Of a stretch of 64,000 nucleotides of DNA, positions 11,548 through 53,540 are shown piece by piece; position 1 is the first letter of the stretch; each line of letters starts with the position of its first letter. Where the stretch lies: IMG/VR virus record IMGVR_UViG_3300049137_000145, positions 29,477 to 93,476 of that record. One strand, given 5' to 3'. The position numbers were made by a program, and so were the translations under genes. The notes below the pieces were generated by a model. The model did no database searches and was not told where the DNA came from. It saw nothing but the letters and a program-made list of their open reading frames with translations. The DNA comes from a virus.

Positions 11548-11616
11548 ATTCCTCCCGAGGAAGAGACCCGGGCAGGGTAGGGCAGATCCGCTGATTCACC
11601 ATCTCGGAGCACGACG

Positions 11617-11647
11617 AAGCCCCGGGCCGCGAGGGCGCCGGGGCTTC
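11617..11647 (-). terminator. hairpin after the SF3 helicase gene
   Basis: GAAGCCCCGG-n11-CCGGGGCTTC. Confidence 0.6.
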
Positions 11648-11661
11648 GGGGTTGGGCGGGA

Positions 11662-14098: not shown

Positions 14099-14145
14099 GA
14101 CGGCTATTGTCGGCCGTCTTGCGGCGCATGGTTTCCGGAGACGCA

Positions 14146-14181
14146 GCGAGGCCCGCCCCACGGGGGAAGGGCGGGCCTCGC
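14146..14181 (-). terminator. 13-bp GC hairpin
   Basis: GCGAGGCCCGCCC-n10-GGGCGGGCCTCGC. Confidence 0.6.
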
Positions 14182-14213
14182 TCTGCCGGTTGGAGTCAGC
14201 AGCGTGGTCCAGT

Positions 14214-15493
<1,280 letters not shown>

Positions 15494-27467: not shown

Positions 27468-30400
27468 TCAGTCCTTCGCGTAGCAGGACGCCCAGTCCCG
27501 GGCCGCCTTGGAGGCCCCGGCGGTGATCGGCACGCCCTTGAACTCGAACGTGAACGCGTCCAGCACTGTGGCCGTGATCTCCTTCACGCGGTCCTCGGGG
27601 ACGCACAGGACGACCTCGTCGTGCACGACGCAGCGCAGCCACTCCGTGGCCTCCGGAGCCCGGTCGACCAGACGCAGGAGCGCTTCGCACATGATGTCCC
27701 GGGCGCCGCCCTGACCCATGAGCGCCGGGGCCTGCGTCCAGGCACGGTCGGGGTTGCAGCGCATGAGCCGGCCGAACCCGTTGTCCAGCAACTCGCCAGC
27801 CGCCGCCCGCTCCCGAACCTCGGTCCGCCAGGCGCACAACACCGGATACTGCGCGTTCATCTGGTCATCGAACTTCTGGGCCAGTTCCAGCGCGACACCG
27901 GAGTTGGCGATGCCCTTGACGGACATGCCGTAGTTCCATCCGTGGCCGATGCGCTTGGCGTTGTCGCGCCACTCACCGTCGTGCCGGCCGAACACGGCGT
28001 CGGCGATGCGCGAGTGCGCGTCCTCGCCGGGAGCGAAGTTGGCCATGTACGCCGGGTCCTGGCAGTGGCCGGCGATGGCGCGCATGTCGACCTGGTCCAG
28101 GTCGAAACAGATCAGCAGTGAACCGTCGTCGGCGATGAGCGGACGCCGCTGGTGCACCTTGCCGCCACGCTTGGCCATGTTGGTGACCGACGGGCGGACG
28201 TACGCCCACCGGCCAGAGCCCTGGAGATCGCCGACCTGGGGGTGGATCCGGTCGCCGATCAGGTGATCCATGATCTCCTGGTACTTCTGGACCGAGGACG
28301 TCACGGTGACGATGTGGCCCGCCATCTCCTCGATTGCGGTCCAGTCGGCGTTCGGGTGGTATGGACGCCGGTTGGGGTTCAACAAGGCCGGCACCTCGCG
28401 ACCCCCCGCCCCCTTGCCGACGAAGTACGACCCCCTGCCCAGCGCATCCTTGTTGAGGCTGATCAGGCCAGACGCCGTCTTGAGGTAATACGGCAGCCCC
28501 CGGTCGGCGAACGCCTTGATGATCGCCTCCCGGCCCTCGTTGGTGGACAGCGGCGACTTGACCGGCTCGTCAGTGAAGACGCGGTTCTTGCCCCGGCCCT
28601 TGCCGACGGAGCGGGTCAGCGGGACACCGCAGTGCTCGTGCAGCCACTCCAGCGACTCCTGCCTCTTGGCGGCCTCCGCGTCGACCAGCTCACGCAGGAC
28701 GGGGACGTCGACCTTCCAGCCGGTCAGGGTCGGCCGGTGCTGGATGTGGGCCACCCGCATCTCACGCCGGACGTAGTCCGAGGGCTCGCCCAGAGCGCGC
28801 CGCACGCCCCGGGTGGCCTGAAGATCGCCGCTGAAGTAGACGCTCAGCTCGTTGACCGGGATCCGCCCGTACCCGAGGTCGGTGCGCTCGGCCTTGTCCA
28901 GCTTGCGGCCGTCGATCTCCTCGGGCCCGTGCTTGAAGGCGAGCGCCGACAGGTCGTCGGTCTTGCCGTTGACCCCGTGACGCTGTGCGGTCTGGTCGAG
29001 GCCGTAGTAGCCCTTGGCTGCCCAGGGCTTTTCGTGGGCAGCGCCGGGCGGGTCGATGGTCTGCTCCCACCGGAGGGTGTCCATCGTCTTGGCGGCCAGC
29101 TTGTCGTAGTCGGCTCCGTGGTGGATGGCGAGGGCCATCAGGTCGAACCCGAGCAGATTGTGGCCGTACAGCTCGTCGGCGTCCTCCAGCCGCTTGATCA
29201 GCTCATCGACGGAGTTGACGACAACCTCCGTGCCGTCCTCGGTGACGTAGCCGGCCAGCCGGACGTACGGGTCGCCGCCGAGGTCTTTGTGCCGGAACAG
29301 CAGCTTGGCGCTGTGGGTCTCCAGGTCGAACCCGACCACGCCGCCGGCGCGAACCGGGGCAGCCTCCGGGGACGGTGCCTGGGCGGGGACGGAGGCCGCA
29401 CGGGGGGTGTGATCGGCTTCCGCTTCCGCGAAGGGATCGCCCCCGAACGGATCCGCGTCGAGGGCAGGCTGAGAGGGTGTACCCCCTGTACCTCCTGCTC
29501 CTGTTCCCCCTATACGGGGAGAGATTTCACGGTTATAGGTCGGAGGAGGTACAGGGGGTACACCCTCGTCTCCGCCGTCGTTGACCTCGTCTTTTCCGTT
29601 CGGGTCCTGGAAGCGCACTCCGAGCCACGCCTGGTAGTTGACGCCCGTGGGGGTGTGGCCGCCCAGTGTCGACCGTCCGTCCCGCGCCCTGATCTTCTTT
29701 CGTTCGACCCCGTTCCGGGCGCACTCGTCGTGGCCTCCGAATCGGGAGACGAAGGTGCGGTCGGTCCACTCACGGTGGCCCTTGTCCGCCAGGTACTTGT
29801 TGAAGACCTCGTGCAGCTCCCGGGCAAGGATGTGGCTGTTCCAGTCGAACGTCAGGACATCCCCGATGAACGACAAGATCAGGTCCGATTCCTTGCGCCA
29901 GCTCAAGGTGTCCTTTTCCACCTGCTTCGGCGCGGGCGGCATGATCTGCCCCGCTGCGTACCACTTGCGGGCCCCCTCCACCAGCCACGCCAGCGCAGCC
30001 TCCGTACGTGGCCCGTCGTCCGTGCGCAGGCGCTGACGGAGCATCTGGTCACCGGGTTTGTCGTAGGGCCCTGTGCATGCCTCTCCGGGCTTCCTGAACG
30101 TGAACGGGAACGTGAGCATCTGGAGCCTGCGCCACGTGCCGTGGTCCGACTCCTCCACCAGCGGCCGGTGGTTGGTGTTGATGATCAGCGTATGCGTCGC
30201 CTTGAAGGTCACGCTGTCCTGGCGCATCTTGCGCGCCGTGATCTGCTCGGTACCGGCGAGCTGCTTGACCCGGTTGACGTCGAGCTTCTTCGCTTCCGGG
30301 GTCTCCTCCAGGACGGCCAGGCGGGCACCGAGGAAGTCCATCATCTCGGTGGGGTGGTTCTCGCTCGCGTTGCCGAGCAGGGCCCGGTGAGCAACGGCCG

Positions 30401-31811
30401 TGTGGTACCCGCCGCGCGTACCGGCGGCCTTCGCCAGAGTGTCCATGATCGAGGACTTGCCGTTGGATCCGCCGCCCTGGCAGATGAGGATGACGTCGTC
30501 CGGCGGCGTGTGCCCGGTGATGGCCTGGCCGTTGCGGATCTGGAAGTAGTCCACTACGTCGTCAGGGACGGCCTCCAGAGCGGTGTCCCAGTCGGGGTGC
30601 CGGGCACCGGGGACGTAGTCGCACCCGGTGATCTTCGTCATCAGCCGGTCGGGGTCGTGGGGGGTGAGCACACCGGTGCGCAGGTCCAGGATGCCGTTCT
30701 GGCAGTTGAGGGCGTCGGGGTCGTAGTCGAAATCGGTGGCCGCCGACTCCAGGATGCCCCTGGACAGCTTCAGCAGGTTGCCCAGTTTGGATGCGGCGAG
30801 TGCCCCGCGCCAGCCGTCCATCTGGCTGCGCAGGTCTTTGTTCGGCTCAGCGCGCTGCTGGTCGAGCACGCGCTGAAAGCCCGCCATCGCCCACTGCCGG
30901 ATGTCCTCCATCACCGTGGCGTCGGTGCATTCTGTCCATACCTTGCCGTTCCACTGCATCCACCCGAGCCCGGCGGCCCAGCGGTACCGGCCGTCCAGTG
31001 TCTCGGAGCACACCGTGTCGGCGAGGATCGCGTCGGAGAACGCCGCGTCACGCGTGTTGTCGCTCGGCATCTCGGTGGTGGCCGCGCCGTGAAGGTCGGT
31101 CAGCGTGCCGCCGGCGTGGAGGAAATCGTCCACGCCCTTGGTGGGCGTTCCGTTGATCTCCTCGGGGACGATCAGGTAGTGGATGACGGCGGCCCCCTTG
31201 GACTCCAGCCACATCCCGAGCCGCCGCATGGCCATCAGGACCATCCTGTTGTGCCGCGCGTCGGAGTCGAAACAGATGACGATGGTCCGGCCCTTGAGCG
31301 GGATGTCCTCCCAGTCGCCGAGGGTGCCCAGACGCGACCGCCAGTTGAAGACGCCGGACAGGGAGACGACGGCGAGGCCCTGGGACGCCAGGGAATCCGC
31401 CTTTTTCACGCCCTCAGTGATCCACAAGGGATTCGTGACGACACGCACCGCGTTCGCCATGAGCGGCGGAACGTCCAGGCGCGGCTTGGTGCCGACGGGG
31501 GAGGCGTATTTCATCATCTTGTCGCCGCTGCCGCTGCTGTGGGGCTGCGGCTGGCCCGGCTTGAACTGCGCACCGATACGCTCACCGGTCACCCGGTACA
31601 GCGGAATGAACAGGCCCGGGAATGCCGTTTCCTCGCGCCAGGCCCACACCGGGATGGATTCCTCACGCAGCCGGGCCCGGTCTTCATCGGTGCCGTACAA
31701 CGTCTCGTACCCGCGTGCGTCGCGGTGCTCCGGGGCGATCTCGCTGGCGTCCAGCTCCGCCAGATGGTGGTCCGACACCTGCCCCGAGTTCGTGTCCACG
31801 TACGTGGTCAT
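27468..31811 (-). CDS. replication polyprotein: Toprim/DUF3854-like primase region + SF3 (P4/D5-type) helicase + family A DNA polymerase with 3'-5' exonuclease
   Basis: N-terminus has WITEGVKKADS...ICFDSDARHN (Toprim). The middle has QGGGSNGKS (Walker A) and LAVLEET (Walker B). The C-terminus has FDLETHS and HNLLGFDL (exo), CFDLDQVDMR (Pol motif A), RDNAKRIGHGWNYGM (motif B) and VHDEVV (motif C). Confidence 0.9.
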   Translation of the reverse strand: MTTYVDTNSGQVSDHHLAELDASEIAPEHRDARGYETLYGTDEDRARLREESIPVWAWREETAFPGLFIPLYRVTGERIGAQFKPGQPQPHSSGSGDKMMKYASPVGTKPRLDVPPLMANAVRVVTNPLWITEGVKKADSLASQGLAVVSLSGVFNWRSRLGTLGDWEDIPLKGRTIVICFDSDARHNRMVLMAMRRLGMWLESKGAAVIHYLIVPEEINGTPTKGVDDFLHAGGTLTDLHGAATTEMPSDNTRDAAFSDAILADTVCSETLDGRYRWAAGLGWMQWNGKVWTECTDATVMEDIRQWAMAGFQRVLDQQRAEPNKDLRSQMDGWRGALAASKLGNLLKLSRGILESAATDFDYDPDALNCQNGILDLRTGVLTPHDPDRLMTKITGCDYVPGARHPDWDTALEAVPDDVVDYFQIRNGQAITGHTPPDDVILICQGGGSNGKSSIMDTLAKAAGTRGGYHTAVAHRALLGNASENHPTEMMDFLGARLAVLEETPEAKKLDVNRVKQLAGTEQITARKMRQDSVTFKATHTLIINTNHRPLVEESDHGTWRRLQMLTFPFTFRKPGEACTGPYDKPGDQMLRQRLRTDDGPRTEAALAWLVEGARKWYAAGQIMPPAPKQVEKDTLSWRKESDLILSFIGDVLTFDWNSHILARELHEVFNKYLADKGHREWTDRTFVSRFGGHDECARNGVERKKIRARDGRSTLGGHTPTGVNYQAWLGVRFQDPNGKDEVNDGGDEGVPPVPPPTYNREISPRIGGTGAGGTGGTPSQPALDADPFGGDPFAEAEADHTPRAASVPAQAPSPEAAPVRAGGVVGFDLETHSAKLLFRHKDLGGDPYVRLAGYVTEDGTEVVVNSVDELIKRLEDADELYGHNLLGFDLMALAIHHGADYDKLAAKTMDTLRWEQTIDPPGAAHEKPWAAKGYYGLDQTAQRHGVNGKTDDLSALAFKHGPEEIDGRKLDKAERTDLGYGRIPVNELSVYFSGDLQATRGVRRALGEPSDYVRREMRVAHIQHRPTLTGWKVDVPVLRELVDAEAAKRQESLEWLHEHCGVPLTRSVGKGRGKNRVFTDEPVKSPLSTNEGREAIIKAFADRGLPYYLKTASGLISLNKDALGRGSYFVGKGAGGREVPALLNPNRRPYHPNADWTAIEEMAGHIVTVTSSVQKYQEIMDHLIGDRIHPQVGDLQGSGRWAYVRPSVTNMAKRGGKVHQRRPLIADDGSLLICFDLDQVDMRAIAGHCQDPAYMANFAPGEDAHSRIADAVFGRHDGEWRDNAKRIGHGWNYGMSVKGIANSGVALELAQKFDDQMNAQYPVLCAWRTEVRERAAAGELLDNGFGRLMRCNPDRAWTQAPALMGQGGARDIMCEALLRLVDRAPEATEWLRCVVHDEVVLCVPEDRVKEITATVLDAFTFEFKGVPITAGASKAARDWASCYAKD

Positions 31812-39308: not shown

Positions 39309-39404
39309 CGCGCGGTAGCTCAACAGGCCAGAGCCCCGAGGATCCGGACCGTCCCCCGTTCCGGCAGACCCTCGGAGATCCGGGTTCGAGACCCGGCCGC
39401 GCAC
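39309..39404 (+). tRNA. tRNA-like element with a non-canonical expanded anticodon arm (possible Arg-CCG with a 21-nt insertion)
   Basis: Acceptor CGCGCGG/CCGCGCA with a C1-A72 mismatch. TA, then D-arm GCTC-AACAGGCCA-GAGC. Anticodon stem CCGAGG/CCTCGG encloses 28 nt containing an inner CCGGA/TCCGG helix. Variable loop AGAT. T-arm CCGGG-TTCGAGA-CCCGG. No CCA is encoded. Confidence 0.45.
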
Positions 39405-39484
39405 CGGAGCCACGCACTACCGGCTCCCCTCCACCGCCGCCGGCGGCAGAGGCACACAGGAACACAGCAGACAGGATCACAGGC

Positions 39485-41797: not shown

Positions 41798-42064
41798 ATG
41801 AACATGACCGCGCAGCGCCCCCAGCGGGGGCGCCCAAGGCCCGCTGAGACCATTGAGCGAGACCAGCGGATTCTCGCCCTGCTCCGGAAGAACCCCAAGG
41901 GCATGGCCCGTAACGAGATCGCCGAGGTTATGGGTCTGAACAAGTCCCGCACGTACCTGTCGCTGGACCGGCTGCGCCGGAACGGTCTGGCCCGCAAGGT
42001 CAGCCCCGAAGGCTCCCAGGCGGACAAGGACACCCTCTGGGTACCCGTGACGACGGAGAGCTGA
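41798..42064 (+). CDS. winged-helix (MarR/ArsR-like) DNA-binding protein (88 aa)
   Basis: ILALLRKNPKGMARNEIAEVMGLNKSRTYLSLDRLRRNGLARKV. Confidence 0.65.
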   Translation: MNMTAQRPQRGRPRPAETIERDQRILALLRKNPKGMARNEIAEVMGLNKSRTYLSLDRLRRNGLARKVSPEGSQADKDTLWVPVTTES

Positions 42065-42435
42065 TGCCACAGGACCGGACACTCTACGACCGGGAGCCCG
42101 CACAAGACGCCGAAGGCGCCGACGGTGCGGGCTCTGTGGTTGTCGGTATCGACCTGTCGGCGCTGGACGGACTCGTCATGAACATCTGTGCGAACACCGA
42201 GCTGTGGGCGGGCCGGCCCGACGTGACCATGCGGACTTTCCAGCAGTTCCGCGAGAACATGGCTCGTGCGGGGCTCGCCGCTCAGCAGGCGATGTGCGGA
42301 CTCAGTGAGTCTCTGGGGCATGCGCGGCCTGTTCGGTCAGAGTCCAGAATCAGCATCGCGGTCCCTTTCGGGTCGGACGCGATGCACTGGACTCCGCCGG
42401 CCGACGGGAAGGAGATACCGTCATGCCCCGCCTGA
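42064..42435 (+). CDS. hypothetical protein (123 aa)
   Basis: Listed ORF, coupled ATGA-style to the upstream gene. Confidence 0.5.
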   Translation: MPQDRTLYDREPAQDAEGADGAGSVVVGIDLSALDGLVMNICANTELWAGRPDVTMRTFQQFRENMARAGLAAQQAMCGLSESLGHARPVRSESRISIAVPFGSDAMHWTPPADGKEIPSCPA

Positions 42436-43073
42436 GCGTCGCCGTTGTCATACCCACAATCCCCGGCCGCGAGGAGTTGCTGGAGCGTGCCCTCGCATCG
42501 GTCAGGGCGCAGAGGCGCCGGCCGGACCAGGTCGTCGTGGAGCGGGACTCCCTGCGGACCGGGGCCGACCAGGCCCGCAACCGGGCTCTGGAGCGGGTCA
42601 CCACTGACGTCGTGGCCTGGCTCGATGACGACGACGAGCTGAAGCCCAATCACCTCATGGCCTGCATGCGCGTGATGGAGCAGTCCCGCGAAACGCCGGA
42701 CCTCGTCTACCCGGCGCCGCAGGTGCGCGGAGGCGAGGACCGGACAGCCGTGTCCGTCCAGGGGCAGTGGGTTTCGCCGTGGGGCGTCCGCTTCGGGTCC
42801 GAGCAAGCAGCACATCTGCGCAGGTTCGGGTCCTTCATCCCGATCACGCACGTCGTACGGACGGAGAAAGTCCGTTTGATAGGGGGTTTCCGCCCTGGCC
42901 GCAACGTGACGACAGAAGGCATAGGACGCCGCTACCGTGGCGAGGACGAGGACTATCTGGTACGTCTGCTGGACGCAGGCGCCACGTTCGAACATCTGGA
43001 CGCGCGGACGTGGGTCTGGAACCTTCACGGGGGAAGCACCGCCGGCAGAGGACTCGCCTCGGTGAATACCTGA
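42423..43073 (+). CDS. family 2 glycosyltransferase
   Basis: VAVVIPTIPGREELLERALASV...ARNRAL...AWLDDDDE (DxD). It is a paralogue of 52009..52590 (FIPITHVVRTE versus YIPITVLVRTE). Confidence 0.8.
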   Translation: MPRLSVAVVIPTIPGREELLERALASVRAQRRRPDQVVVERDSLRTGADQARNRALERVTTDVVAWLDDDDELKPNHLMACMRVMEQSRETPDLVYPAPQVRGGEDRTAVSVQGQWVSPWGVRFGSEQAAHLRRFGSFIPITHVVRTEKVRLIGGFRPGRNVTTEGIGRRYRGEDEDYLVRLLDAGATFEHLDARTWVWNLHGGSTAGRGLASVNT

Positions 43074-43094: not shown

Positions 43095-43238
43095 GTGTCG
43101 ACCACCACAGTCACGACCGGACCACCCCCCAGCAATGACGCCGCACTGCGGGACCGCATCCGCGAACTGACCAACGGGGATGCGGCGATCTCGGCCCCGG
43201 CCCTCACCCGGGACACCGTTCTGGAGATTCTGCGGTGA
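43095..43238 (+). CDS. possible small protein (47 aa)
   Basis: Hand-translated GTG ORF after GGAGGAG. It ends in a GTGA overlap with 43235. It is below the track cutoff. Confidence 0.35.
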   Translation: MSTTTVTTGPPPSNDAALRDRIRELTNGDAAISAPALTRDTVLEILR

Positions 43239-43564
43239 CCGGGCGGCAGAGGTACGGCTACGTCTACGGAGGAACGGCCACCTTCCAGGGGCAGACCCGG
43301 ACACTGGACGGGACAGCGTGGTCCCTGGGCCGGTGTGACGAGGTCCGTCTGCGTGCGGCTGCCGTACGGGACTTGTCCCGGACCGAGGACGTCCCACTTG
43401 CCGGAGTCGAGATCAGCGACTTCTGGTTCAGCGAAATCGTCACCGAGGACGACGGCCGGGACATCACAGGGACGAGCGGTGCCGACCCGTTCCGTCCCCA
43501 TCCGTGCACAGGTGCTGGCCAGGACCCGTTCCGTCCAGGTGTCCCCGAGGGCGGGGACACCTGA
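43235..43564 (+). CDS. hypothetical protein (109 aa)
   Basis: Listed ORF. Confidence 0.5.
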   Translation: MTGRQRYGYVYGGTATFQGQTRTLDGTAWSLGRCDEVRLRAAAVRDLSRTEDVPLAGVEISDFWFSEIVTEDDGRDITGTSGADPFRPHPCTGAGQDPFRPGVPEGGDT

Positions 43565-43800
43565 CGACGGGACACCGAGCCCCTGCGGGACAACCGCAGG
43601 GGCTTTGTCGTGTCCCGGGACGTGGCGTCTGTCCCTGCGGCTGTCCCCGTCCTCGGGGACACCGGGACACGGGACACGACGTCCGTCCCCGGAGCGGGAC
43701 AGACGGGCCGGGGACATGTCCCGAGGAGACGGAGACACGACTGGCGGGACATGTCCCGGGACAAAGGTTTGCCGGGACACGGGACACGGGGACAGATAGC
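43565..43800. repeat. dense array of GGGACA/TGTCCC hexamers including 12-bp palindromes
   Basis: At least 20 hexamer copies in 236 bp. GGGACATGTCCC occurs twice (about 43711 and 43746). TGTCCCGGGAC(A/G) occurs at about 43611 and 43752, and again at 43891. Confidence 0.85.
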
Positions 43801-43866
43801 GTGTACGATGATTTAAGGAAATCAGCACCGACCAAGGAATCGTGACCAAGGAAGCGAGGACAGACC

Positions 43867-44847
43867 ATGTCCCTTGCCGTGTCCCCGAGGATGTCCCGGG
43901 ACAATACCGACCCGGCGCAGCGCGTGACGTTCATCGCGCTCATCACCGCCTGCGCCGTCATCACTGTGCTGACGGCCGCCGCGTTCTGGCTCTCCTACGC
44001 CCACCTCGCCGAGGTGGCTCGGGAGCACGGCCTGGGCCGCTCACCGGCCCGTCAGTGGGCCTGGCCCGCCACGCTGGACCTGTTCATCGTCGCAGGTGAA
44101 GTCCTCATGTTCGTGGACGCCCTGCGCGGCCGTAAGGGCCGCGAGGCGGCCGGGCCCATCTTCCTGACCGTGGCCGGCTCCCTGGGCTCCATCGGCCTGA
44201 ACGTGGCCGGTGTCGGCATGCACGCCCCGGTGCTGGACTACGTCGTCGCCGCTGTGCCGCCCACGGCCGCGCTGCTGGCCTTCGGCGCCCTCATGCGCCA
44301 GGTCCACCACTTCATCGTGTCCCTGTCCCCTGCGCAGGCTGTCCCCGGGGACACGGGACAGAGCGATGTCCCGGGGACCGTGTCCCCCTCACCGGTTGTC
44401 CCTGGGGACACGTCCCCGGTCAAACAGGCGGCCGTGTCCCCCGCTCCTCGAGACACTGTCCCCCCTGTCGTGTCCCCCTCGCCGGCTGTCCCGGAGCCTG
44501 TCCCGGCGGTCGTGTCCCGGACCCGCGCCGCTGTCCCGGCCGTGTCCCCCTCGCGTCCCTCGGTCCATATCCGGCTGGACAAGACGCCCGAGGAGATCAA
44601 GGTCGACGGGGACAAGGAAGCGGGGTCCGTCCCGGCCGTGTCCCCCGCGAGGGACGCCAAGGTCGATGTCCCCGAGGACAAGCTGGGCAACCTCTCCGCC
44701 ATCGTCCGCTTCCTGATGGAGACGGGACACAGCAAGGAAGAGATCCGAACCATCGTCCCCACCCTCACGGGACACGAGGACGTCAAGCCGGACAGCCTGA
44801 AGAAGGCGATCCAGCGGGCCGCGAAGGCACTTGCGGAGGAGAACTGA
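43867..44847 (+). CDS. DUF2637-like membrane protein (actinomycete plasmid Spd/transfer-associated type) with V/S/P-rich linker
   Basis: N-terminal 4-TM region ...FIALITACAVITVLTAAAFWLSYAHLAEVA...WAWPATLDLFIVAGEV...; family recall is from memory. The central region is encoded almost entirely by TGTCCC/GGGAC-containing codons. Confidence 0.7.
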   Translation: MSLAVSPRMSRDNTDPAQRVTFIALITACAVITVLTAAAFWLSYAHLAEVAREHGLGRSPARQWAWPATLDLFIVAGEVLMFVDALRGRKGREAAGPIFLTVAGSLGSIGLNVAGVGMHAPVLDYVVAAVPPTAALLAFGALMRQVHHFIVSLSPAQAVPGDTGQSDVPGTVSPSPVVPGDTSPVKQAAVSPAPRDTVPPVVSPSPAVPEPVPAVVSRTRAAVPAVSPSRPSVHIRLDKTPEEIKVDGDKEAGSVPAVSPARDAKVDVPEDKLGNLSAIVRFLMETGHSKEEIRTIVPTLTGHEDVKPDSLKKAIQRAAKALAEEN

Positions 44848-44945
44848 CGCAGGCACCCTTGATTTAGGTAAAGCCCTGCCGGGGACAACCCTGGTGGGGC
44901 TTTCGCCCTTTCAGACCCAGGAATCAGGAAGAGAAGGAACCCGGA

Positions 44946-45506
44946 ATGAGCCGTATCGGACAAAACCACCCTGACAACCCGTTCAGCGCAGCCGGCCGGG
45001 CGAAGGGACAGACCGGCGAACAGCTCCAGGCCCGTGGCCTGGACGGCCAGGGCAACCCGCTCCCGTCGCAACCGGTCAACGGTGCTGGTCACAAGCCTCA
45101 CAGGCCGTCCGCCGCGCGCAGCCAGAACATCTCCCAGCTCGCCCAGTCCATCGGCGATCTGGAGCTGTCCAACCAGGACGACCTGCATGCCTTCTGTGAG
45201 GCGTACCGGGCCATCCTGAACTATCTCGCAGTGTCGGCGAAGCTGGCAGAAGGCCAGCTCAAGGCCGCTGCACGGGCCAACGCCAAGCAGGCCAAGACCG
45301 GCTGGATGACGCCCGCGCAGCGGCTCAAGCTGCACTCGACGCTGCGGCAGGTCGGCAAGGATCTCGACGCCATCGCCAACTCCTGCGTCTCCGGATCGGC
45401 CGGCGCCGTCAAGGCGTGGCGGCGGTTCGAGGCCCTGCTGGACGACCTGGAGACCGACAGCCCCACCCGCCGTCCCGGCGGCCGTTCCGGCTTCACCGTG
45501 GTCTAG
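44946..45506 (+). CDS. hypothetical protein (186 aa)
   Basis: Listed ORF with leader CAGGAATCAGGAAGAGAAGGAACCCGGA. Confidence 0.6.
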   Translation: MSRIGQNHPDNPFSAAGRAKGQTGEQLQARGLDGQGNPLPSQPVNGAGHKPHRPSAARSQNISQLAQSIGDLELSNQDDLHAFCEAYRAILNYLAVSAKLAEGQLKAAARANAKQAKTGWMTPAQRLKLHSTLRQVGKDLDAIANSCVSGSAGAVKAWRRFEALLDDLETDSPTRRPGGRSGFTVV

Positions 45507-45520
45507 GGGCGGTGGACAGC

Positions 45521-47530
45521 ATGAGCAGCACTCGTATCAGGGGATATGCCCTGTTCAACGTGCCCGAACGGGTAACGTCGTACGTCCTGCCGTGGGCCAT
45601 CGTGGGCGCTGCCTGGCCGCTGGCCCTGGTGCTTCACCTTCTCGTCGGCGACAGCCCGCTGTGGATGGCCTTTCTCGCCGTCGGGTTCACCTACCTGGCG
45701 TACGTCACCTGGTCGACGTGGGCCGTGCGCCGCCAGGAGACCCGGGTCATGGTCACGGTTTTCGTCACGGCTGTCCTGACCTGGGAAGTTTTCGCTGTCA
45801 CCGTCCGCCCCTGGCAGGCTGACGTGGCCAAGGCGTGGGCGCTCGGCGGGCTCGTGCTGTCCGTCGCCTGGTGCGTGCGCCACGCGGCCCTGTCCGGCGT
45901 TCGCGACGCCGACAAATCGCAGGTGGAAGGCGGAAACGACGGCCTGCTGGCCAAGGTCCGGGCGTTCAAGGACGCACGGGTCGGCAAGATCACCGAGTCC
46001 CCGGACGAGCTGCGCGCCCGGGTCCACCTGGACGCCCCGACCACGGCGAAGGAGGCACAGGACGCCCGGGAGCAGATCGCGGCTGTCGCCGGCGTCGGTG
46101 CCGACCAGGTGAAGGTGCTCAAAGTCGCAGGTCACGAGGGTCAGGTGGACGTCGCATTCACCCGGGCGCGAGGAGAGTTCAAGCCCGCCGTATGGACGGG
46201 CCCGCGTCACCTCGGTGCGTCCATCGCGGACGCACCGATCTGGCTCGGCAAGCGCACTGACGGCAGCGACATCGACTGGTGGATCGTCGGCTCCGAGGAC
46301 GAGGAAAACCCCAGGCCACTGGCCCACACGAAGTGCACCGGCGTGTCCGGTGCGGGCAAGACGGAGACCATCTGCACCGCGATTCTCCAGATGCGCGAGC
46401 GCATCGACGTGGTGCCGGTGGTCGGCGACCCGGCCAAGTTCCAGCAGTCCTTCGGCGACATCGAGGAGGTGCTGGGCCTGGCCGCGAAGACCCGGGAAGC
46501 CACCGAGCAACTGGTACGCAATCTCATCCCGCTCATTGAGTACCGTGCCGGCCTGTTCGGGTCGCTGACCAGGGCCGATGGCGGCAAGGGCTACAAGCAG
46601 TGGGTGCCCGAGCTGTACGCCTTGCACGGCATTCCGGCAATCTTCCTGGACATCGAGGAGGCCACCGACGTACTGCCTGTGGTGGACGAGGAAGCCGACG
46701 AGGCCATGCGCAAGCTGCGGTCGGTCGGCGTGCACTTCTGCGCGTCCGCGCAGACCATGCCGCACGACAACGTCCCCCGCAAAACCCGAGGTCAGCTCGT
46801 GCAGTCCCTGGCCCACGGCCAGAAGGAATACCAGGACGCCAAGTACGCCCTGGAGGCGAAGACGCTGGAGGCCGGCGCCGACCCGACCAAGTGGGCCAAC
46901 AACGCCCCCGGTTCGCTGTATGCCGAGGTCACGGGCACGGACGAGGCGCACTGGCCTATCGAGGGCCGGGTGCCGCGTATGAAGGCGGCCGACCGCGAGG
47001 AGATGAAGCAGGTCACACGCCCGTACTGGGCGGAGCTGGACGAGGGGTCCTACCGGATCCTCGCCCGGGGCGTCGTGGACGAACAGACCGAGGCCGTTCC
47101 GGTGGCCGTGGAGGCAACCCTGGAGGACGACGTGGACACCGACTTTGCGCAGGTCAGCGACCTGAGCACGATCAGCGCCGACGGCATCGACACGGGCGAG
47201 CCGCTGGCCGCTCCGCGCGGGCTGTCGCTCACCTTCGCCGACCCGGTGAACGAGGACCGGGTCAGCGACGAGCAGGCGCGGGCGGAGCTGCTGCACCGCA
47301 TCGACGTGCTGGCCAGCGCGAACCCGGGAGGTTCCGTAGAGGTCACGTTCGCCGATCTGGCCGACCTCCCCGAGCAGGTGCAACGCTCCCGGGGCTGGGT
47401 CTACAAGCAGCTTGAGCGGCTGTCTGACGACGGCGTACTGCGCCGCCTGACCCCGCCGAACACCCGGGCGGTCTACGCGACGACCGGCTCTGTCTCCGTG
47501 GACACGGAGCTGGTGGAGGCAGCCGGCTGA
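45521..47530 (+). CDS. traB: FtsK/SpoIIIE-family DNA translocase, TraB-like
   Basis: N-terminal TM segments, Walker A GVSGAGKT, Walker B IFLDIEEA and a C-terminal winged-helix-like WVYKQLERLSDDGVLRR. The start is at MSSTRIRG. Confidence 0.85.
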   Translation: MSSTRIRGYALFNVPERVTSYVLPWAIVGAAWPLALVLHLLVGDSPLWMAFLAVGFTYLAYVTWSTWAVRRQETRVMVTVFVTAVLTWEVFAVTVRPWQADVAKAWALGGLVLSVAWCVRHAALSGVRDADKSQVEGGNDGLLAKVRAFKDARVGKITESPDELRARVHLDAPTTAKEAQDAREQIAAVAGVGADQVKVLKVAGHEGQVDVAFTRARGEFKPAVWTGPRHLGASIADAPIWLGKRTDGSDIDWWIVGSEDEENPRPLAHTKCTGVSGAGKTETICTAILQMRERIDVVPVVGDPAKFQQSFGDIEEVLGLAAKTREATEQLVRNLIPLIEYRAGLFGSLTRADGGKGYKQWVPELYALHGIPAIFLDIEEATDVLPVVDEEADEAMRKLRSVGVHFCASAQTMPHDNVPRKTRGQLVQSLAHGQKEYQDAKYALEAKTLEAGADPTKWANNAPGSLYAEVTGTDEAHWPIEGRVPRMKAADREEMKQVTRPYWAELDEGSYRILARGVVDEQTEAVPVAVEATLEDDVDTDFAQVSDLSTISADGIDTGEPLAAPRGLSLTFADPVNEDRVSDEQARAELLHRIDVLASANPGGSVEVTFADLADLPEQVQRSRGWVYKQLERLSDDGVLRRLTPPNTRAVYATTGSVSVDTELVEAAG

Positions 47531-47545
47531 GGCGGTTGACGGGAA

Positions 47546-47580
47546 GTCGGGGCGGGCATCAACCTGGTGCCCGCCCCGAC
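47546..47580 (+). terminator. 13-bp GC hairpin after the traB-like gene
   Basis: GTCGGGGCGGGCA-n9-TGCCCGCCCCGAC. Confidence 0.65.
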
Positions 47581-47581
47581 G

Positions 47582-47760
47582 TCTGCCACGGTGTCTGTCA
47601 CGACTTTCCAAGATCCATCACGGACATCTGTCGCGGGCGTCACGGACGTCCGTCACATCTGCCACGGACATCTGTCTCGGCGTCAGCCACGGGACCGCCA
47701 GGCCTCCGGCCTTGGTTCTCTCCCGCTCGGCGGTCGCCGTGACACGACCACGGACCACTG
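47582..47760. repeat. array of CACGGAC(ATCTGTC) repeats
   Basis: Copies at about 47586, 47619, 47640, 47662, 47687 and 47748. The core is CACGGACATCTGTC, which contains the GACA..TGTC dyad. Confidence 0.75.
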
Positions 47761-47782
47761 ACACAGGAATGAGGAACAGGTC

Positions 47783-48187
47783 ATGACGCGGAAACTGACA
47801 TGCATGGAAGGCCGTTGCGGAGCCGCCCCGGTGATCACCAAGCCGGTACCGCTGTGCTCTGTGCACGGCCTGGACGTCGCCTCTCAGGTCGTCTCCGGAG
47901 TGCTGCGCAGCGCGGTCGTCGCGGCCCGCCGGAACGCCCCGAATCTCACCGCCCCTCCCCCGGTCCGGCTGACTCAGGCGGAGGCGTACCAGGTCGCCGA
48001 CGAGTACCTGACCAAGCTGAAGGCGCAGGGCCGGGAGCACTTCGCTTTTCGGGACGTGCGCGACGTCGTCCCGCTCACCGGCAAGTCCCGGAGCTGGGTG
48101 TACGCGTGGCTGGACAAGCGCGCCAACGAAGGCGTGCTTGTCCGGGACGACCGCCACGGGCAGGCCGGCTACCGGTTCGCCGCGTAG
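47783..48187 (+). CDS. putative DNA-binding protein (134 aa)
   Basis: Listed ORF. The N-terminus has CMEGRC...LCSVHG and the C-terminus has a wHTH-like SRSWVYAWLDKRANEGVLVR. Confidence 0.55.
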   Translation: MTRKLTCMEGRCGAAPVITKPVPLCSVHGLDVASQVVSGVLRSAVVAARRNAPNLTAPPPVRLTQAEAYQVADEYLTKLKAQGREHFAFRDVRDVVPLTGKSRSWVYAWLDKRANEGVLVRDDRHGQAGYRFAA

Positions 48188-48232
48188 GGGTTGTGCGGCC
48201 ACTGGAGAAATGGTTTAGTTAAATCAGTCTGG
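48187..48232 (+). promoter_or_regulatory. conserved phage promoter
   Basis: GGGGTTGTGC: -35 at 48191-96, spacer 17 nt, -10 TTTAGT at 48214-19, followed by TAAATCAG. Confidence 0.7.
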
Positions 48233-48258
48233 ACTGCCGACCAAGGAACGAGGGATCC

Positions 48259-48558
48259 ATGACCACTCGATTGACCACCGTCGAATCCCTGTACGCCGCG
48301 TACGCCGAGCGGATCGCAGCTACCGTGCGGCTCGACGCGACCGAGTACAGCGCCACCCCTGACGGACTCGCCACGCTCCTGCGGGACACAGCCAGCCGTC
48401 TCAGCCCCGTCGACCCCAACCGCGAGTGCCTGGGAGAGGCCGCGTGCAGCCTGGACGCACTTTCCCGGTTCGAAGGTGCAGGCCGTGTGACGCAGGCACT
48501 CCTCCGGAAGGTCGGCAAGAACCTGTACGAAGTGACCGGGGAGCTGGAGGCTCACTGA
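48259..48558 (+). CDS. hypothetical protein (99 aa)
   Basis: Listed ORF with leader GACCAAGGAACGAGGGATCC. Confidence 0.6.
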   Translation: MTTRLTTVESLYAAYAERIAATVRLDATEYSATPDGLATLLRDTASRLSPVDPNRECLGEAACSLDALSRFEGAGRVTQALLRKVGKNLYEVTGELEAH

Positions 48559-48705
48559 CCGTCCCGGCTCGACCCCGAAACCCCGAAGCCTCGGAGCCGC
48601 AATGGCCCGGGGCTTCGTCGTCTGATTGGCCGCCCGGCCGCTGTGGTACACCTAATTCAGGGCCGCGACTGCGGCCCACTGCCCAAGGAATCAAGGAAGC
48701 TGACC

Positions 48706-49119
48706 ATGGAGATAGAGCGGAGGCATGCCCCGGTCCCCGGCGAGCTGCTGGAGTACCTGAAGGCCAACCCGTCAGCCGCGCAGCAGGCGGCGGACGGTGG
48801 AGTCCACGTCCACGTGCACCACCACTACGCGGCCCCCGAGCCGGCCGTCCCTGCCGGGGCGGTCGTGCACCAGGGCCCGGAGAAGACAGCGGCGGAGAAG
48901 GTGGTCCCGTGGCTGTACGTCGCACTGCTGTCCTGCGTCGTCCTGACGCTGTGTGCGCTGGTGTTCGCCATGGTGGCCGTCGTCGTGGTGGCCATTCTGG
49001 CAGCGGTGATCGTGCTCGGCCTGGTCGCCGCGTACATCATCAACGCCCAGACCGGGGCCGTGGAAGCGCGGACCAGGGCGGCGGAGGCGCTGAACAAGGG
49101 CAAGCACAAGAGGCGGTGA
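48706..49119 (+). CDS. membrane protein (137 aa, 2 TM, His-rich HVHVHHHY)
   Basis: Internal ATG after CCCAAGGAATCAAGGAAGCTGACC. Confidence 0.6.
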   Translation: MEIERRHAPVPGELLEYLKANPSAAQQAADGGVHVHVHHHYAAPEPAVPAGAVVHQGPEKTAAEKVVPWLYVALLSCVVLTLCALVFAMVAVVVVAILAAVIVLGLVAAYIINAQTGAVEARTRAAEALNKGKHKRR

Positions 49120-49175: not shown

Positions 49176-49193
49176 TGCGTTGAGGGGTTGTGC

Positions 49194-49240
49194 GGTCGCC
49201 GGGCGGATGGTTTAATTAAATCAGTCGGGAGGGATCCCGG
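49194..49240 (+). promoter_or_regulatory. conserved phage promoter
   Basis: GGGGTTGTGC: -35 at 49198-49203, spacer 17 nt, -10 TTTAAT at 49221-26. Confidence 0.7.
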
Positions 49241-50488: not shown

Positions 50489-50674
50489 ATGGACGCCGAG
50501 GACCCCGTCCGCGTACGTGCCCGTGAGGAGATCACCGAGCTTCGGATGTCCGTGGAGTACTGGAGGGAGCGTTCCGGTCTCCCCGGTGGAGCCGGAAGGG
50601 CCGCGCGCAGGGCCTACTGCAATTGCCTGGCGGCATTGTGGCGAGCCGAGGCCCTGGCCGGCCCGGCCGCCTGA
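50489..50674 (+). CDS. hypothetical protein (61 aa)
   Basis: ATG after GACTAAGGAACGAGGAAGCT. Confidence 0.5.
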   Translation: MDAEDPVRVRAREEITELRMSVEYWRERSGLPGGAGRAARRAYCNCLAALWRAEALAGPAA

Positions 50675-50709
50675 CCCCGCATTACCACCGACCAAGGAAT
50701 GAGGAACCC

Positions 50710-51105
50710 ATGACCGCAGCGAACCCTGGACAAGTCCACGTCGTCTCCTTCGGCTACGGCCACGGCGACGCCCCTGCCGCCCACCTGACCCTGGACCTGC
50801 GCCACCACTTCCGGGACCCGCACGTCCGCCCGGAGATGCGCGAGCTGACCGCCGTGCACCGCCTGGTCCGCCGGACCGTTCTCGGCACCCCGGGCATCAA
50901 GGCCCTGCTGACCGCGACGGTGCGTGCCATTCAGGCGTACGACTCCGGGCCGTCCGCTCAGGCCACAGTCGTGGCGGTCGGCTGCGTCGGCGGCCGGCAC
51001 CGGTCCGCCGTGGCGGCGGACGCCCTCGCGCGCCGCCTGCGCCGCCGGGGCCACGAGGTCACCGTGGAGCACCGCGACCTGCACCGCCCAGTCATCGCCC
51101 GCTGA
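50710..51105 (+). CDS. RapZ/YvcJ C-terminal-domain-like protein (131 aa)
   Basis: HLTLDLRHHFRDPH...LTAVH...VAVGCVGGRHRSAVAADALARRLRRRGHEVTVEHRDLHR resembles the RapZ C-terminal ...IGCTGGKHRSV...HRD (from memory). Confidence 0.6.
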   Translation: MTAANPGQVHVVSFGYGHGDAPAAHLTLDLRHHFRDPHVRPEMRELTAVHRLVRRTVLGTPGIKALLTATVRAIQAYDSGPSAQATVVAVGCVGGRHRSAVAADALARRLRRRGHEVTVEHRDLHRPVIAR

Positions 51106-51186: not shown

Positions 51187-51255
51187 TCGTGCGGTGATTC
51201 GGCGAATCCTCGGTACCGTTCCGGCGCCTGAGTGGACCACGGAACGGAGGATGCC

Positions 51256-51963
51256 GTGACAGCACCGCTACTGGTGATCGTCCCGACGAGGGGCCGCCCG
51301 CAGAACGCCGCCCGGCTGGTGAAGGCGTTCGAGGAGACCGACTCCCTCAACGCGGAGCTAGTGTTCGTCGCCGACCAGGACGACCCCGAGCTGCCCGCCT
51401 ACCACGTCACCACGCCCCGGCTCCTGATCCACCGGGACGAGACCGGAACGGGCATGGTCGCCGCACTCAACGGGGCCGCATCGCTGTACGCCGACATCTA
51501 CGACGCCATCGGGTTCATGGGTGACGACCATCTGCCGCGCACAGCCGGGTGGGACGCCCATGTGCTCGGTGCGCTGAACTCCCCGGAGCCCCGCATCGTG
51601 TACGGCAACGACCTCTTCCAGGGCGAACGGCTGCCGACGGCCGTCTTCCTGCCGTCCCGGGTGGTGCGGGCGATGGGGTTCATGGCGCCGCCCGTGCTGC
51701 GGCATCTGTACGTCGATGATTTCTGGCTGGAGCTGGGCCGACGCCTCGGCGGGCTGCGCTACCTGCCTGACGTCATCATCGAGCACCTGCACCCGGCAGC
51801 GGGCAAGGTCCCCATGGACGCGGGCTACGCAGCGGTCAACGCCCCCGAGGCCGACGTGGCCGACCGTCTGGCGTGGATGGAGTTTCGGGACGGCGACGGC
51901 TTCTCCGCCGCGCTGCGAGCCATCCGGGAGGAGTACAGCCGTGATGCACACCCGACTGTGTGA
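51256..51963 (+). CDS. glycosyltransferase-like protein
   Basis: GTG start after CCACGGAACGGAGGATGCC. N-terminal LLVIVPTRGRPQNAARLVKAF...FVADQDDPE has a GT-A-like start. Confidence 0.6.
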   Translation: MTAPLLVIVPTRGRPQNAARLVKAFEETDSLNAELVFVADQDDPELPAYHVTTPRLLIHRDETGTGMVAALNGAASLYADIYDAIGFMGDDHLPRTAGWDAHVLGALNSPEPRIVYGNDLFQGERLPTAVFLPSRVVRAMGFMAPPVLRHLYVDDFWLELGRRLGGLRYLPDVIIEHLHPAAGKVPMDAGYAAVNAPEADVADRLAWMEFRDGDGFSAALRAIREEYSRDAHPTV

Positions 51964-52008: not shown

Positions 52009-52590
52009 GTGAGGCCCGGCGTCACAGCCGTCATCCCGGCCATTCCGCCCCGCGTCGCTGACGGCAAGTTGCACCGGGCGGTGTCCTCGGTGCTCGGTCA
52101 GACGCGGCCGGTTGACGCGGTCAGCGTCAGCATCGACACCGGCCGGCTCGGCTCATCGGTCAACCGGAACCAGGCTCTGGCCGGGGTGCAAACGGAGTGG
52201 ACCGCCCTGCTGGACGACGATGACGAGTGGAGCCCCAGCCACATCGAGCTGCTGATGGACCACGCACGGGACACGGATGCTGACCTCGTCTACCCGTGGT
52301 TCGACGTCCCTGGGGGATTCGACCCCTGGCCGCACCGCGAGGGCAGGCCGTTCGACCGTGAGGCTCTGCGGAGCGAGAACTACATCCCGATCACCGTGCT
52401 GGTGCGCACGGAGTTGCTGCGGGACGTCGGTGGTTTCCGGCCCAAGGGTCCGCCGGACAACCCGTGCGACGACTGGGGGACCTGGGACGCACTGCTGGAG
52501 CGCGACGCGAAGTTCACGCACCTCAACCGCCGGACGTGGACGTGGCACTGGCACGGGGCCAATACGAGCGGGAGGCGGGACCTGTGGTGA
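52009..52590 (+). CDS. family 2 glycosyltransferase
   Basis: VTAVIPAIPPR...NRNQAL...ALLDDDDE. It is a paralogue of 42423..43073. Confidence 0.8.
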   Translation: MRPGVTAVIPAIPPRVADGKLHRAVSSVLGQTRPVDAVSVSIDTGRLGSSVNRNQALAGVQTEWTALLDDDDEWSPSHIELLMDHARDTDADLVYPWFDVPGGFDPWPHREGRPFDREALRSENYIPITVLVRTELLRDVGGFRPKGPPDNPCDDWGTWDALLERDAKFTHLNRRTWTWHWHGANTSGRRDLW

Positions 52591-53486
52591 TGCGCGCACT
52601 GATCACGGGCGACCGGGGGTTCCTCGGCCGGCACTTCACGGCGGAGCTGCGGCGTCGGGGATGGAACGTGACAGGCCTGGACACGAAGGCGTCCAGCGCT
52701 CAGGACTGCCGACTGTTCTTCAGGCGCCAGCTCACCTACCGGAACGTGCCGCATCTGACGTTCGATCTCGTCGTGCACTGCGCGGCCGTGGTCGGCGGCC
52801 GGGCGACCATCGACGGCGACCCGCTCGCCACGGCGGAGTCCCTGAGCATCGACGCGGAGATGTTCCGGTGGGCGGCCGTCGCGCGGCCGGGCCGGGTGCT
52901 GTACCTCAGCTCCAGCGCGGCGTACTCCACCTGGCTCCAGTCCGCAGGCGGACCACGTCAATCCCTGGAAGAGGACAGCTTGCACACCACGCCTCTCCAG
53001 CCGGACCAGGTGTACGGATGGTCCAAGGTGACCGGCGAACTCCTTGCCACCCGTCTCCGCAACAGCGGGGTGCCGGTGACCGTCGTACGGCCGTTTTCCG
53101 GGTACGGCGAGGACCAGGACGACACGTACCCGTTCCGGGCGATCCTCGGCCGCGTGCTGCGCCGTGAAGATCCTCTGGAGGTGTGGGGTACCGGCGAGCA
53201 GGTGCGCGACTGGATCCACGTGGACGATGTCGTCGCCGGCGCGCTGGCCGTCGCCGAGTCTGGCACCGAGGACCCGGTGAACCTGTGCACCGGCCGGGCG
53301 ACGTCGTTCCTGGAACTGGCTCGGATGATGGCGACGGCCGCCGGATACGAGCCGGTGGTTAAGCCCCTCGCGGACAAGCCGGCCGGTGTGGTGTACCGAG
53401 TCGGCGACCCGAGCCGCATGCGGCAGTACTACGAGCCGCGCGTGGACCTCATGGACGGGATCCTGCGGGCGTTGAACGTGATCTGA
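52590..53486 (+). CDS. NAD-dependent epimerase/dehydratase (SDR)
   Basis: ATG overlaps the upstream TGA (TGATG). Motifs ITGDRGFLGRH and YGWSKVTGE (YxxxK). Confidence 0.8.
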   Translation: MRALITGDRGFLGRHFTAELRRRGWNVTGLDTKASSAQDCRLFFRRQLTYRNVPHLTFDLVVHCAAVVGGRATIDGDPLATAESLSIDAEMFRWAAVARPGRVLYLSSSAAYSTWLQSAGGPRQSLEEDSLHTTPLQPDQVYGWSKVTGELLATRLRNSGVPVTVVRPFSGYGEDQDDTYPFRAILGRVLRREDPLEVWGTGEQVRDWIHVDDVVAGALAVAESGTEDPVNLCTGRATSFLELARMMATAAGYEPVVKPLADKPAGVVYRVGDPSRMRQYYEPRVDLMDGILRALNVI

Positions 53487-53491
53487 CGTCA

Positions 53492-53540
53492 GGGGTTGTG
53501 CCTCCCTCAGGGCTATGATTTAATTAAGTCATCGAGAGGG
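53492..53540 (+). promoter_or_regulatory. conserved phage promoter
   Basis: GGGGTTGTGC: -35 at 53496-501, spacer 17 nt, -10 TTTAAT at 53519-24, followed by TAAGTCATCGA. Confidence 0.7.

Follow-up and report, generated by a model that had tools for sequence, protein, structure and literature searches.

Phage-plasmids and conjugative plasmids are commonly treated as alternative transmission strategies. Among Streptomyces plasmids, which typically encode a GntR-type TraR/Kor repressor, the TraB/clt/SpdB2 translocation complex of pSVH1 was reportedly characterised by Reuther (2006) and Vogelmann (2011), the TraB recognition sequence (TRS) of this plasmid being GACCCGGA, and one plasmid-phage of Streptomyces, pZL12/phiZL12 (GQ919031), with its relative pSLE1, is said to have been described by Zhong et al. 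in J Bacteriol in 2010. TraB recognises 8-bp repeats in clt (PMC4447253, PMC4170104). pZL12 is a Streptomyces plasmid and tailed phage of ~90 kb with a conjugal transfer locus, and its transfer depends on a major tra gene together with two genes next to it (PMC3583192). TraB conjugation, Spd-like genes on actinophages and this one plasmid-phage with a transfer locus are what was already known from these sources (PMC4447253, PMC4170104, PMC3583192). A 2025 review knows no phage-plasmid to be conjugative (PMC12282955), although a transfer locus was reported for pZL12 in 2010. Here we describe a module in a stretch of 64,000 nucleotides (hereafter the window), positions 29,477 to 93,476 of IMG/VR virus record IMGVR_UViG_3300049137_000145, which probably represents a ~93-kb Streptomyces tailed phage that persists as a plasmid. 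We take the region at 43.2-49.1 kb of the window, with moderate confidence, to be a Streptomyces-type double-stranded DNA conjugation and spreading module with cis-acting short-repeat arrays, kept by a family of tailed phage-plasmids for contact-dependent movement between and within mycelia. An initial annotation, made from the letters alone, had likewise recognised a plasmid-type TraB module inside a tailed-phage genome, and this is borne out by an ATPase that groups with plasmid TraB, a TraA-like gene that precedes it and arrays that flank it.

Likeness to the plasmid systems centres on traB (45521-47530, + strand), which encodes a 669-aa, membrane-anchored FtsK-like translocase with a C-terminal winged helix. 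Its product matched the NCBIfam model NF041214 (plasmid_TraB) at E 2.1e-87 and 294 bits, with residues 16-642 lying on model positions 4-623 of 639; the distant family members at loci L016 and L035 scored 330 and 370 bits on the same model. By tblastn, TraB had no relative among 50,697 phage records and matched 48 plasmid records, namely one close relative and 47 actinomycete plasmids at 23-27% identity. The latter matches cover at least 70-95% of the length of TraB, come from plasmids of Streptomyces, Nonomuraea, Thermobispora and Amycolatopsis, and include pJV1 and the annotated TraB of pSN22. Outside the phage-plasmid family described below, plasmid TraBs were the sole relatives found, so that the ATPase joins the conjugative-plasmid proteins and not the phage FtsK-like proteins that had been named as its possible alternative company. 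More than 200 TraB homologues were recovered; a library clustered at 50% identity holds 394 clusters, of which ~23 constitute a high-scoring group, at least 35% identical and distinct from ordinary plasmid TraBs.

An AlphaFold (AF2) model of TraB, built from 37 homologues, has a core pLDDT of 85-95. The top Foldseek matches were the FtsK motor structures 6T8B, 2IUS and 2IUT (E 5e-14 to 1e-12), followed by the conjugative coupling protein TcpA and then by EccC/EssC ATPases. All 37 homologues have the same Walker A residues, G274, G279, K280 and T281, and the same acidic pair in Walker B, E379 and E380. Two to three hydrophobic helices lie near the N-terminus (25-55 and 76-94), and residues 583-654 are predicted to form a winged helix at the C-terminus (helices 583-599, 616-620 and 624-636, strands 640-642 and 652-654; pLDDT ~77). 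FtsK and SpoIIIE, with their KOPS and SRS words (FtsK orienting polar sequences and SpoIIIE recognition sequences) and gamma winged helix, share with TraB the motor fold, the membrane anchor and a C-terminal winged helix that reads short DNA words, but similarity at the sequence level is marginal (family profile against 2IUS, E 0.005) and the gene here sits on a mobile element, paired with traA. Pfam FtsK_SpoIIIE (PF01580) was not detected in TraB, and was barely reached by the pSN22 TraB used as control (24.5 bits). With pSVH1 TraB the protein has in common the N-terminal membrane anchor, the FtsK-like motor and, at the C-terminus, a winged helix-turn-helix (wHTH), and short-repeat arrays lie nearby in both systems, with four-transmembrane and small membrane proteins in the same cluster; it differs in that the motifs here are sGGGACAs and CACGGAC.

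Immediately upstream, at 44946-45506 (+ strand), lies a gene for a 186-aa protein that appears, from its similarity and position, to be a TraA-like protein of the pSN22 type and the operon partner of traB. It matched pSN22 TraA in phmmer (E 2e-7, in a small database) and also the pRL1 gene that stands immediately upstream of traB, while its match to NCBIfam plasmid_TraA (NF041213) was weak (E 0.049) and that of its L016 orthologue better (E 2e-5), both under the 80-bit cut-off. The traA stop and the traB start are 14 nt apart, as in pSN22. The likeness to pSN22, and also to pJV1, therefore comprises homologous TraA-like and TraB proteins, TraBs of 669 aa in both, the same 14-nt gap and short direct repeats directly after traB. 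Against this, identity is just 24-27%, the pSN22-type GntR TraR is absent, the Spd proteins are unrelated, and the present module has an extra winged-helix paralogue and a 46-copy upstream array; moreover, the carrier is a ~93-kb phage-plasmid, whereas pSN22 is an 11-kb rolling-circle plasmid. The resemblance to pZL12 is of another kind: this too is a Streptomyces element of similar size, plasmid and tailed phage at once, with a conjugal transfer locus, but blastn aligned only 1.25 kb of it with the window, including 969 bp in a methyltransferase gene, and aligned nothing of pSLE1. The pZL12 Tra protein (pZL12.71c) has no BLASTP similarity to the TraB described here and scored 20 bits on the TraB model, and pZL12 is without TraA and without the paralogue.

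A close relative of the window is pS1D4-14.2 (NZ_CP041606.1; locus L002), which stands as a replicon of its own, 98.8 kb long, in a finished Streptomyces genome; the collinear stretch of the two measures 36.6 kb, and nucleotide identity along it is 67-83%, for the most part 70-83%. This plasmid encodes a portal, a major capsid protein, a tape measure protein, a terminase, a tyrosine integrase and ParA/ParB; a 1447-aa primase-helicase-PolA fusion is common to both elements, the window holds a gene syntenic with parB, and the alignment wraps the record ends, as expected if the element is circular or circularly permuted. The portal, protease-like, terminase and lysin genes that the initial annotation had listed are indeed encoded in the window, and this particular element would presumably form virions and be maintained as a plasmid. 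Together with pS1D4-14.2, about 20 IMG/VR viral genomes (UViGs) of 75-99 kb belong to the same collinear family and carry the same module. The proposed survey of relatives returned at least 22 TraB loci in IMG/VR, at 38-85% identity and mostly on contigs of 54-99 kb, all with the module at the same backbone position, and a portal homologue is present on 10 of these contigs. The longest contigs with TraB homologues measure 89-107 kb at identities of 69% or more and 74-84 kb at 50-55%. Megablast and tblastn searches of the region against INPHARED found nothing, so that no cultured member is represented there.

All loci retain the flanking gene order, even where TraB identity has fallen to 38%. 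It runs from a 1186-aa protein through three small genes, the 88-aa wHTH gene, a glycosyltransferase, a variable slot, traA, traB and a second variable slot to two glycosyltransferases and an epimerase-like gene. All family loci encode an intact TraB (638-670 aa). This conserved synteny, with an intact TraB everywhere, indicates that the module is an ancestral backbone component of the phage-plasmid family and not an inserted actinomycete integrative and conjugative element (AICE); to judge from the sequence comparisons, it is inherited vertically within a family of ~75-100-kb tailed phage-plasmids. Elements of the pSAM2 and SLP1 type do share TraB-type transfer of double-stranded DNA and Spd proteins with the module, but no int-xis-rep-NUDIX set adjoins the tra genes here, the neighbours being glycosyltransferases and conserved genes of the phage backbone, and the only integrase in the window lies 36 kb from the module. 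Insertion of such an element was rejected on the synteny across the family.

Two arrays of short repeats flank traB. Array 1, which the initial annotation had placed at 43565-44790, is real and far above chance expectation, and extends over 43540-44882; it comprises 46 sites of consensus sGGGACAs within 1.4 kb, in two clusters that were delimited from site lists and hexamer counts. The first (array 1a, 43540-43903) has 23 copies in both orientations and runs across the intergenic region into the DUF2637 gene as far as codon 12. The second (array 1b, 44318-44672) has about 20 copies, again in both orientations, among codons of the Pro/Val/Ser linker of the same gene, where they occupy two reading phases and encode VSP, xVP, GDT or TGx according to phase and orientation. 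GGGACA/TGTCCC occurs 45 times in 43500-44800 as against 60 times in the remaining 62.7 kb, a 36-fold enrichment; no hexamer has more than 14 copies in any other 1.3-kb interval, and GGGACA clusters more strongly than any other hexamer in the window. When synonymous codons of the DUF2637 open reading frame (ORF) were shuffled with the protein held fixed, sGGGACAs occurred 6.0±1.9 times (maximum 12 in 2000 shuffles), compared with 26 observed copies, from which it follows that selection on array 1 acts on the DNA itself and that the array has moulded a linker able to tolerate it. The explanation of array 1b as a mere protein repeat was ruled out by the same shuffle. An origin, a cluster of DnaA boxes or a parS site is less likely, since the replication and partition genes lie 12-20 kb from array 1 and strand switching occurs near 32-33 kb; the motif also diverges from the Streptomyces DnaA box after the TGTCC core.

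Downstream, a GC-rich hairpin (47543-47583, + strand; inverted repeat I19) directly follows the traB stop codon, with 19-nt arms that are 89% complementary. The same GGGCGGGCATC...GATGCCCGCCC hairpin follows traB in all close relatives and is likely a terminator. Between it and the paralogue gene, k-mer and TRF scans located array 2 (47574-47760), with four to five copies of CACGGAC(A/G)TC and three of ACATCTG; TRF scored a ~22-bp unit repeated 3.1 times at 69. The array that the initial annotation had placed at 47582-47760 thus exists, though by itself it is no more than borderline in its unusualness. By analogy of position, array 2 may be the equivalent of the pSN22/pJV1 clt: in a control with the same k-mer method, pSN22 yielded CCGCACA eight times within 110 bp after traB, a motif that is given as the clt of the pJV1 type (PMC3583192). 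The same plasmid (L014) has a second array at 5827-6278, CGTGAGC ten times inside spd genes, which parallels the coding-region position of array 1. Repeat arrays downstream of traB reached p<=0.011 in 10 of 24 family loci, with motifs CTGACR, TGTCGG+CGTCAG, CTGATC, GTGATC or CGTGAC according to sub-lineage.

Beyond array 2, at 47783-48187 (+ strand), is a gene for a 134-aa stand-alone paralogue of the TraB C-terminus. The protein matched positions 555-631 of the NCBIfam TraB model (E 1.4e-9) and residues 547-642 of the TraB of the same element (BLASTP E 2e-5); its AF2 model (pLDDT 84) matches a winged-helix fold, preceded by an N-terminal Cys knuckle of C7, C12, C25 and H/C28 (H28 in the window copy). 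We are aware of no counterpart to it in the classical plasmids. The protein may be a regulator, or an accessory factor that binds clt. Two subtypes of the paralogue occur in the window and loci L008-L026, one with a CxxC...CxxC pattern and ~130 aa, the other with a Cx4C...CxxH pattern and 134-149 aa. The paralogue diverges far faster (34-45% identity) than TraB (75-85%) and is missing from the ~80-kb subgroup.

Comparison across the family bears on which protein the arrays serve. In most of 26 loci the top clustered hexamer of the whole locus sits 0.5-2.5 kb upstream of traB, and in most it is GGGACA or a one-base variant (CGGACA, AGGACA, GGGACG); three loci have an unrelated upstream motif, namely pS1D4-14.2 (CGAAAG), L020 (GAGAGC) and L036 (CTCAGC). 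In the inner array of pS1D4-14.2, CGAAAG/CGAGAG replaces GGGACA. No clear co-variation between the TraB recognition helix and the array 1 motif was seen across loci, and the recognition helices of pS1D4-14.2 and L021 are near-identical while their arrays differ. Downstream motifs follow the paralogue subtype, the CxxC type occurring with CTGACR, the 149-aa type with TGTCGG/CGTCAG and the 134-aa type of the window with CACGGAC; since TraB lineage tracks the downstream motif as well, it is confounded with paralogue subtype and co-variation does not assign the binder.

A separate alternative, which concerns the arrays only and which we consider rather unlikely, is that they serve a protein other than TraB. 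Array 1 would then be an operator or silencing platform, a replication or partition site, or the site of the 88-aa wHTH protein (41798-42064), of the DUF2637 C-terminus or of the Cys-knuckle paralogue, with TraB acting on a different site or on no specific site. The replaced inner motifs of pS1D4-14.2 and L020, where the TraB helix is nearly the same, speak for this alternative, as does the location of array 2 in the promoter region of the paralogue gene, whose subtype the motif tracks. Precedents exist in SpdA2/sps of pIJ101, a protein with its binding site within its own spd gene (PMC4170104), and in the second pSN22 array, likewise inside spd genes. Opposed to it are the lack of correlation between the recognition helix of the 88-aa protein and motif class, the distance of 12-20 kb to the ParB and primase-polymerase genes, the fact that arrays accompany traA-traB throughout the family, and the definition of clt itself, whose form is that of short direct repeats adjoining traB (PMC4447253). 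The 88-aa protein is encoded on the + strand, has an RGRPRP N-terminus followed by a MarR/IclR-like winged helix, occurs in every family locus ~3.5-4 kb upstream of traB and is a candidate regulator of the region; in hhalign its match to the TraB profile was not significant (E 0.03, probability 1.7%).

Two membrane proteins of the block are candidate Spd-like (spread) proteins. The first, of 326 aa, is encoded at 43867-44847 (+ strand) and matched Pfam DUF2637 (PF10935) at E 7e-11. Its 4-TM (four-transmembrane) N-terminal domain, with hydrophobic helices at residues 22-40, 65-83, 98-116 and 125-143, is followed by the Pro/Val/Ser-rich linker and a conserved C-terminal segment of ~50 aa. At 63-66% identity, the N-terminal domain resembles proteins of the phages phiSASD1, Dubu and OnionKnight as well as DUF2637 proteins from Streptomyces plasmids of 7 kb, in which the gene lies behind an FtsK/SpoIIIE tra gene; it is from this topology and gene neighbourhood that a Spd-like role is suggested. 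In pS1D4-14.2 the equivalent gene (10131-11740) is split by an inserted ORF with CxxC...HVH...CxxC motifs, which looks like a homing endonuclease of the EndoVII/HNH type. The second protein (48706-49119, + strand; 137 aa) has one hydrophobic hairpin of ~47 aa, equivalent to two transmembrane helices; it is 65-90% identical in close relatives and detectable in distant ones. The initial annotation had limited the module to three genes, the DUF2637-like one with its 4-TM N-terminus, the membrane-anchored FtsK-type ATPase with a C-terminal wHTH and this 2-TM protein. All three are real and lie where it put them, with the features it assigned to them, but three more genes had been overlooked (44946-45506, 47783-48187 and 48259-48558).

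The module also appears to be wired into the regulon of the element. An AT-rich palindrome of consensus GATTTAATTAAATCA has 18 matches at 12 distinct sites in the window, where 0.1 would be expected, mostly 45-60 bp 5' of start codons, and is probably an operator or promoter element of a family-specific regulon. A motif scan placed one copy, GATTTAAGGAAATCA (43810-43824), 57 bp upstream of the DUF2637 start, as a putative operator/promoter, and a second (48211-48225) 48 bp upstream of the 99-aa ORF, so that copies precede both the DUF2637-traA-traB operon and the gene pair for the 99-aa and transmembrane proteins. The copy before the tra genes is positionally conserved across the family, ~1.7-2.3 kb upstream of traB. 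The 12 sites, of 15 bp each, start at 8770, 16428, 26970, 40761, 43810, 48211, 49208, 53516, 55701, 59737, 62372 and 63534. Direct repeat D1 (48 nt, 81% identical; 48186-48233 and 49183-49230) contains the palindrome; one copy stands at the beginning of each of two small, consecutive transcription units. Scans of the window for sigma-70 promoter and terminator consensus sequences were uninformative on this high-GC DNA.

If the module works as its plasmid relatives do, the operon would be transcribed in the plasmid-prophage state from a promoter with the element's own palindromic operator. The N-terminal helices of TraB would insert in the membrane, where a hexameric FtsK-like pump would form, and the winged helix of TraB or of the stand-alone paralogue would dock on the short repeats beside traB as a clt-like site. 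The double-stranded replicon might then be pumped into a neighbouring hypha and thereafter across cross-walls, aided by the membrane proteins. The element may thereby spread both by virions and directly between hyphae, with two transmission routes, virions and mycelial contact, as the outcome.

Several observations weigh against this interpretation. The 294 bits of TraB fall below the 800-bit equivalog cut-off of NF041214, which pSN22 TraB as control just clears at 808.7 bits; TraB is therefore a homologue in a separate clade and not an equivalog, and function is not automatically transferable. With 46 copies, array 1 far exceeds the clt loci described in the literature consulted, which have four to nine direct repeats, and array 2 on its own is matched in unusualness by ~6-9% of comparable intervals. 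The wholly changed motif of pS1D4-14.2 and L020, with a barely altered TraB helix, implies that TraB may not bind array 1. Searches with Pfam and NCBIfam found no GntR-type TraR/Kor repressor among the 10 proteins of 41.8-50.5 kb, although the palindromic operator and the wHTH paralogue are possible substitutes, and phmmer matched the DUF2637 protein to none of the pSN22 Spd ORFs.

The principal rival for the function of the module as a whole, which we judge improbable, holds that the TraB motor works within one mycelium only, in cross-wall passage after infection or in clearing or segregating copies at sporulation septa, with the arrays as loading sites of the KOPS/SRS kind. It draws on the FtsK fold of the motor, on the compartmented hyphae of Streptomyces, on the ParB-like and integrase/Xer-like genes of the element, on the size and density of array 1, closer to a loading platform than to a minimal clt, and on the proposal by Thoma et al. 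(2015) that SpdB2 homologues on actinophages aid the spread of phage DNA (PMC4447253). The nearest characterised homologues (pSN22 TraA/TraB and pJV1 TraB) are intermycelial transfer proteins, however, and the orientation of array 1a is mixed, unlike that of polar KOPS. Plasmid TraB performs both jobs, so that the roles are not exclusive.

That the module acts on competitors, as a membrane ATPase that serves superinfection exclusion or keeps out arriving phages or conjugative plasmids, seems very improbable: exclusion genes are frequent on prophages, membrane proteins adjoin and PADLOC gave a faint match of TraB to mad8 (E 1.3e-4), but the match reflects P-loop similarity only, the other module proteins had none, the full-length architecture and TraA partner fit transfer proteins, and the arrays would be left unexplained. 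Scarcely credible is the view that the module is a piece of an AICE or plasmid, captured recently or in decay, that serves the phage in no way. The DUF2637 N-terminal domain, so similar to small-plasmid and phage versions and swapped between close relatives, does point to recent exchange, but traA-traB keeps one place in the backbone across all relatives down to 38% identity and is intact everywhere with invariant catalytic residues; an adjacent int/xis/rep/NUDIX set is lacking, and the palindrome upstream of the operon is the operator of the element itself.

Conjugation and spreading thus remain our preferred reading, and a bolder form of it can be put forward tentatively, at somewhat under even odds. 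An ancient and widespread clade of ~75-100-kb elements would be truly dual-mode, combining virions with TraB-driven conjugation of double-stranded DNA in the plasmid-prophage state; the module would belong to the operator regulon of the phage, and the Cys-knuckle/winged-helix paralogue and the 46-copy coding-region array could set specificity or the choice between transfer and lysis. In any case, a second family, unrelated to pZL12 and much larger, keeps a classical TraA-TraB pair at a fixed backbone position, several isolate genomes included, and its retention there family-wide implies long-term selection for a second spread route or for movement inside mycelia. Our literature search found no description of a large family whose backbone holds a TraA-TraB operon of the pSN22 type at one fixed place, of a stand-alone winged-helix paralogue or of a 46-copy array over a coding region, nor any paper on the tra module of pS1D4-14.2. 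In the record of that plasmid the module genes are all annotated 'hypothetical protein' and MOB-suite types it as non-mobilizable, the label that MOB-typing tools give to such elements. Cultured carriers exist in Streptomyces sp. S1D4-14, NRRL S-455 and S. africanus NRRL B-24243, which makes the combination of virion and conjugation in one element directly testable, and TraB-type DNA recognition could be studied on the short-repeat arrays and winged helices that vary naturally within the family.

As to the remaining genes, third-position GC gene calls, in a window whose GC content is high (67-73%), resolve 43.2-49.1 kb as a single co-directional block of seven genes on the + strand. The first, orfX (43235-43564), lies upstream of the module and encodes a conserved hypothetical protein of 109 aa; its 3' end runs into array 1, five relatives have a counterpart of 58-74% identity in the corresponding place, and it had no match in Pfam. 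A 99-aa ORF of unassigned function (48259-48558, + strand), taken from the ORF list, has a homologue in pS1D4-14.2 at 48% identity and no family match in Pfam, NCBIfam and other family searches. At E 0.01, Pfam had no match for TraB, the paralogue, the 99-aa ORF or the transmembrane protein, and single-sequence searches against PDB sequences returned noise only.

Elsewhere in the window, the module is bracketed by three glycosyltransferases, two epimerase-like genes and a protein with a RapZ C-terminal domain (42423-43073, 51232-51963, 52009-52590, ~52590-53500, 16762-17850 and 50623-51105), which are conserved family-wide and may modify the cell envelope or DNA. In the 1447-aa fusion (27468-31811, - strand), which is presumably the replicase, DUF3854 (Toprim-like) and D5_N are joined to a D5-type helicase and a family A DNA polymerase. 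Between the terminase (12728-14287, - strand) and the portal (2196-4037, - strand) lie a tyrosine recombinase (7036-8112, + strand), a 423-aa repressor-like regulator (4712-5983) and an exonuclease-like gene, an interruption unusual for a packaging module that recurs in the same order in pS1D4-14.2. A tRNA-Arg(CCG) is predicted at 39309-39405 (+ strand), with an unusually long span of 97 nt.

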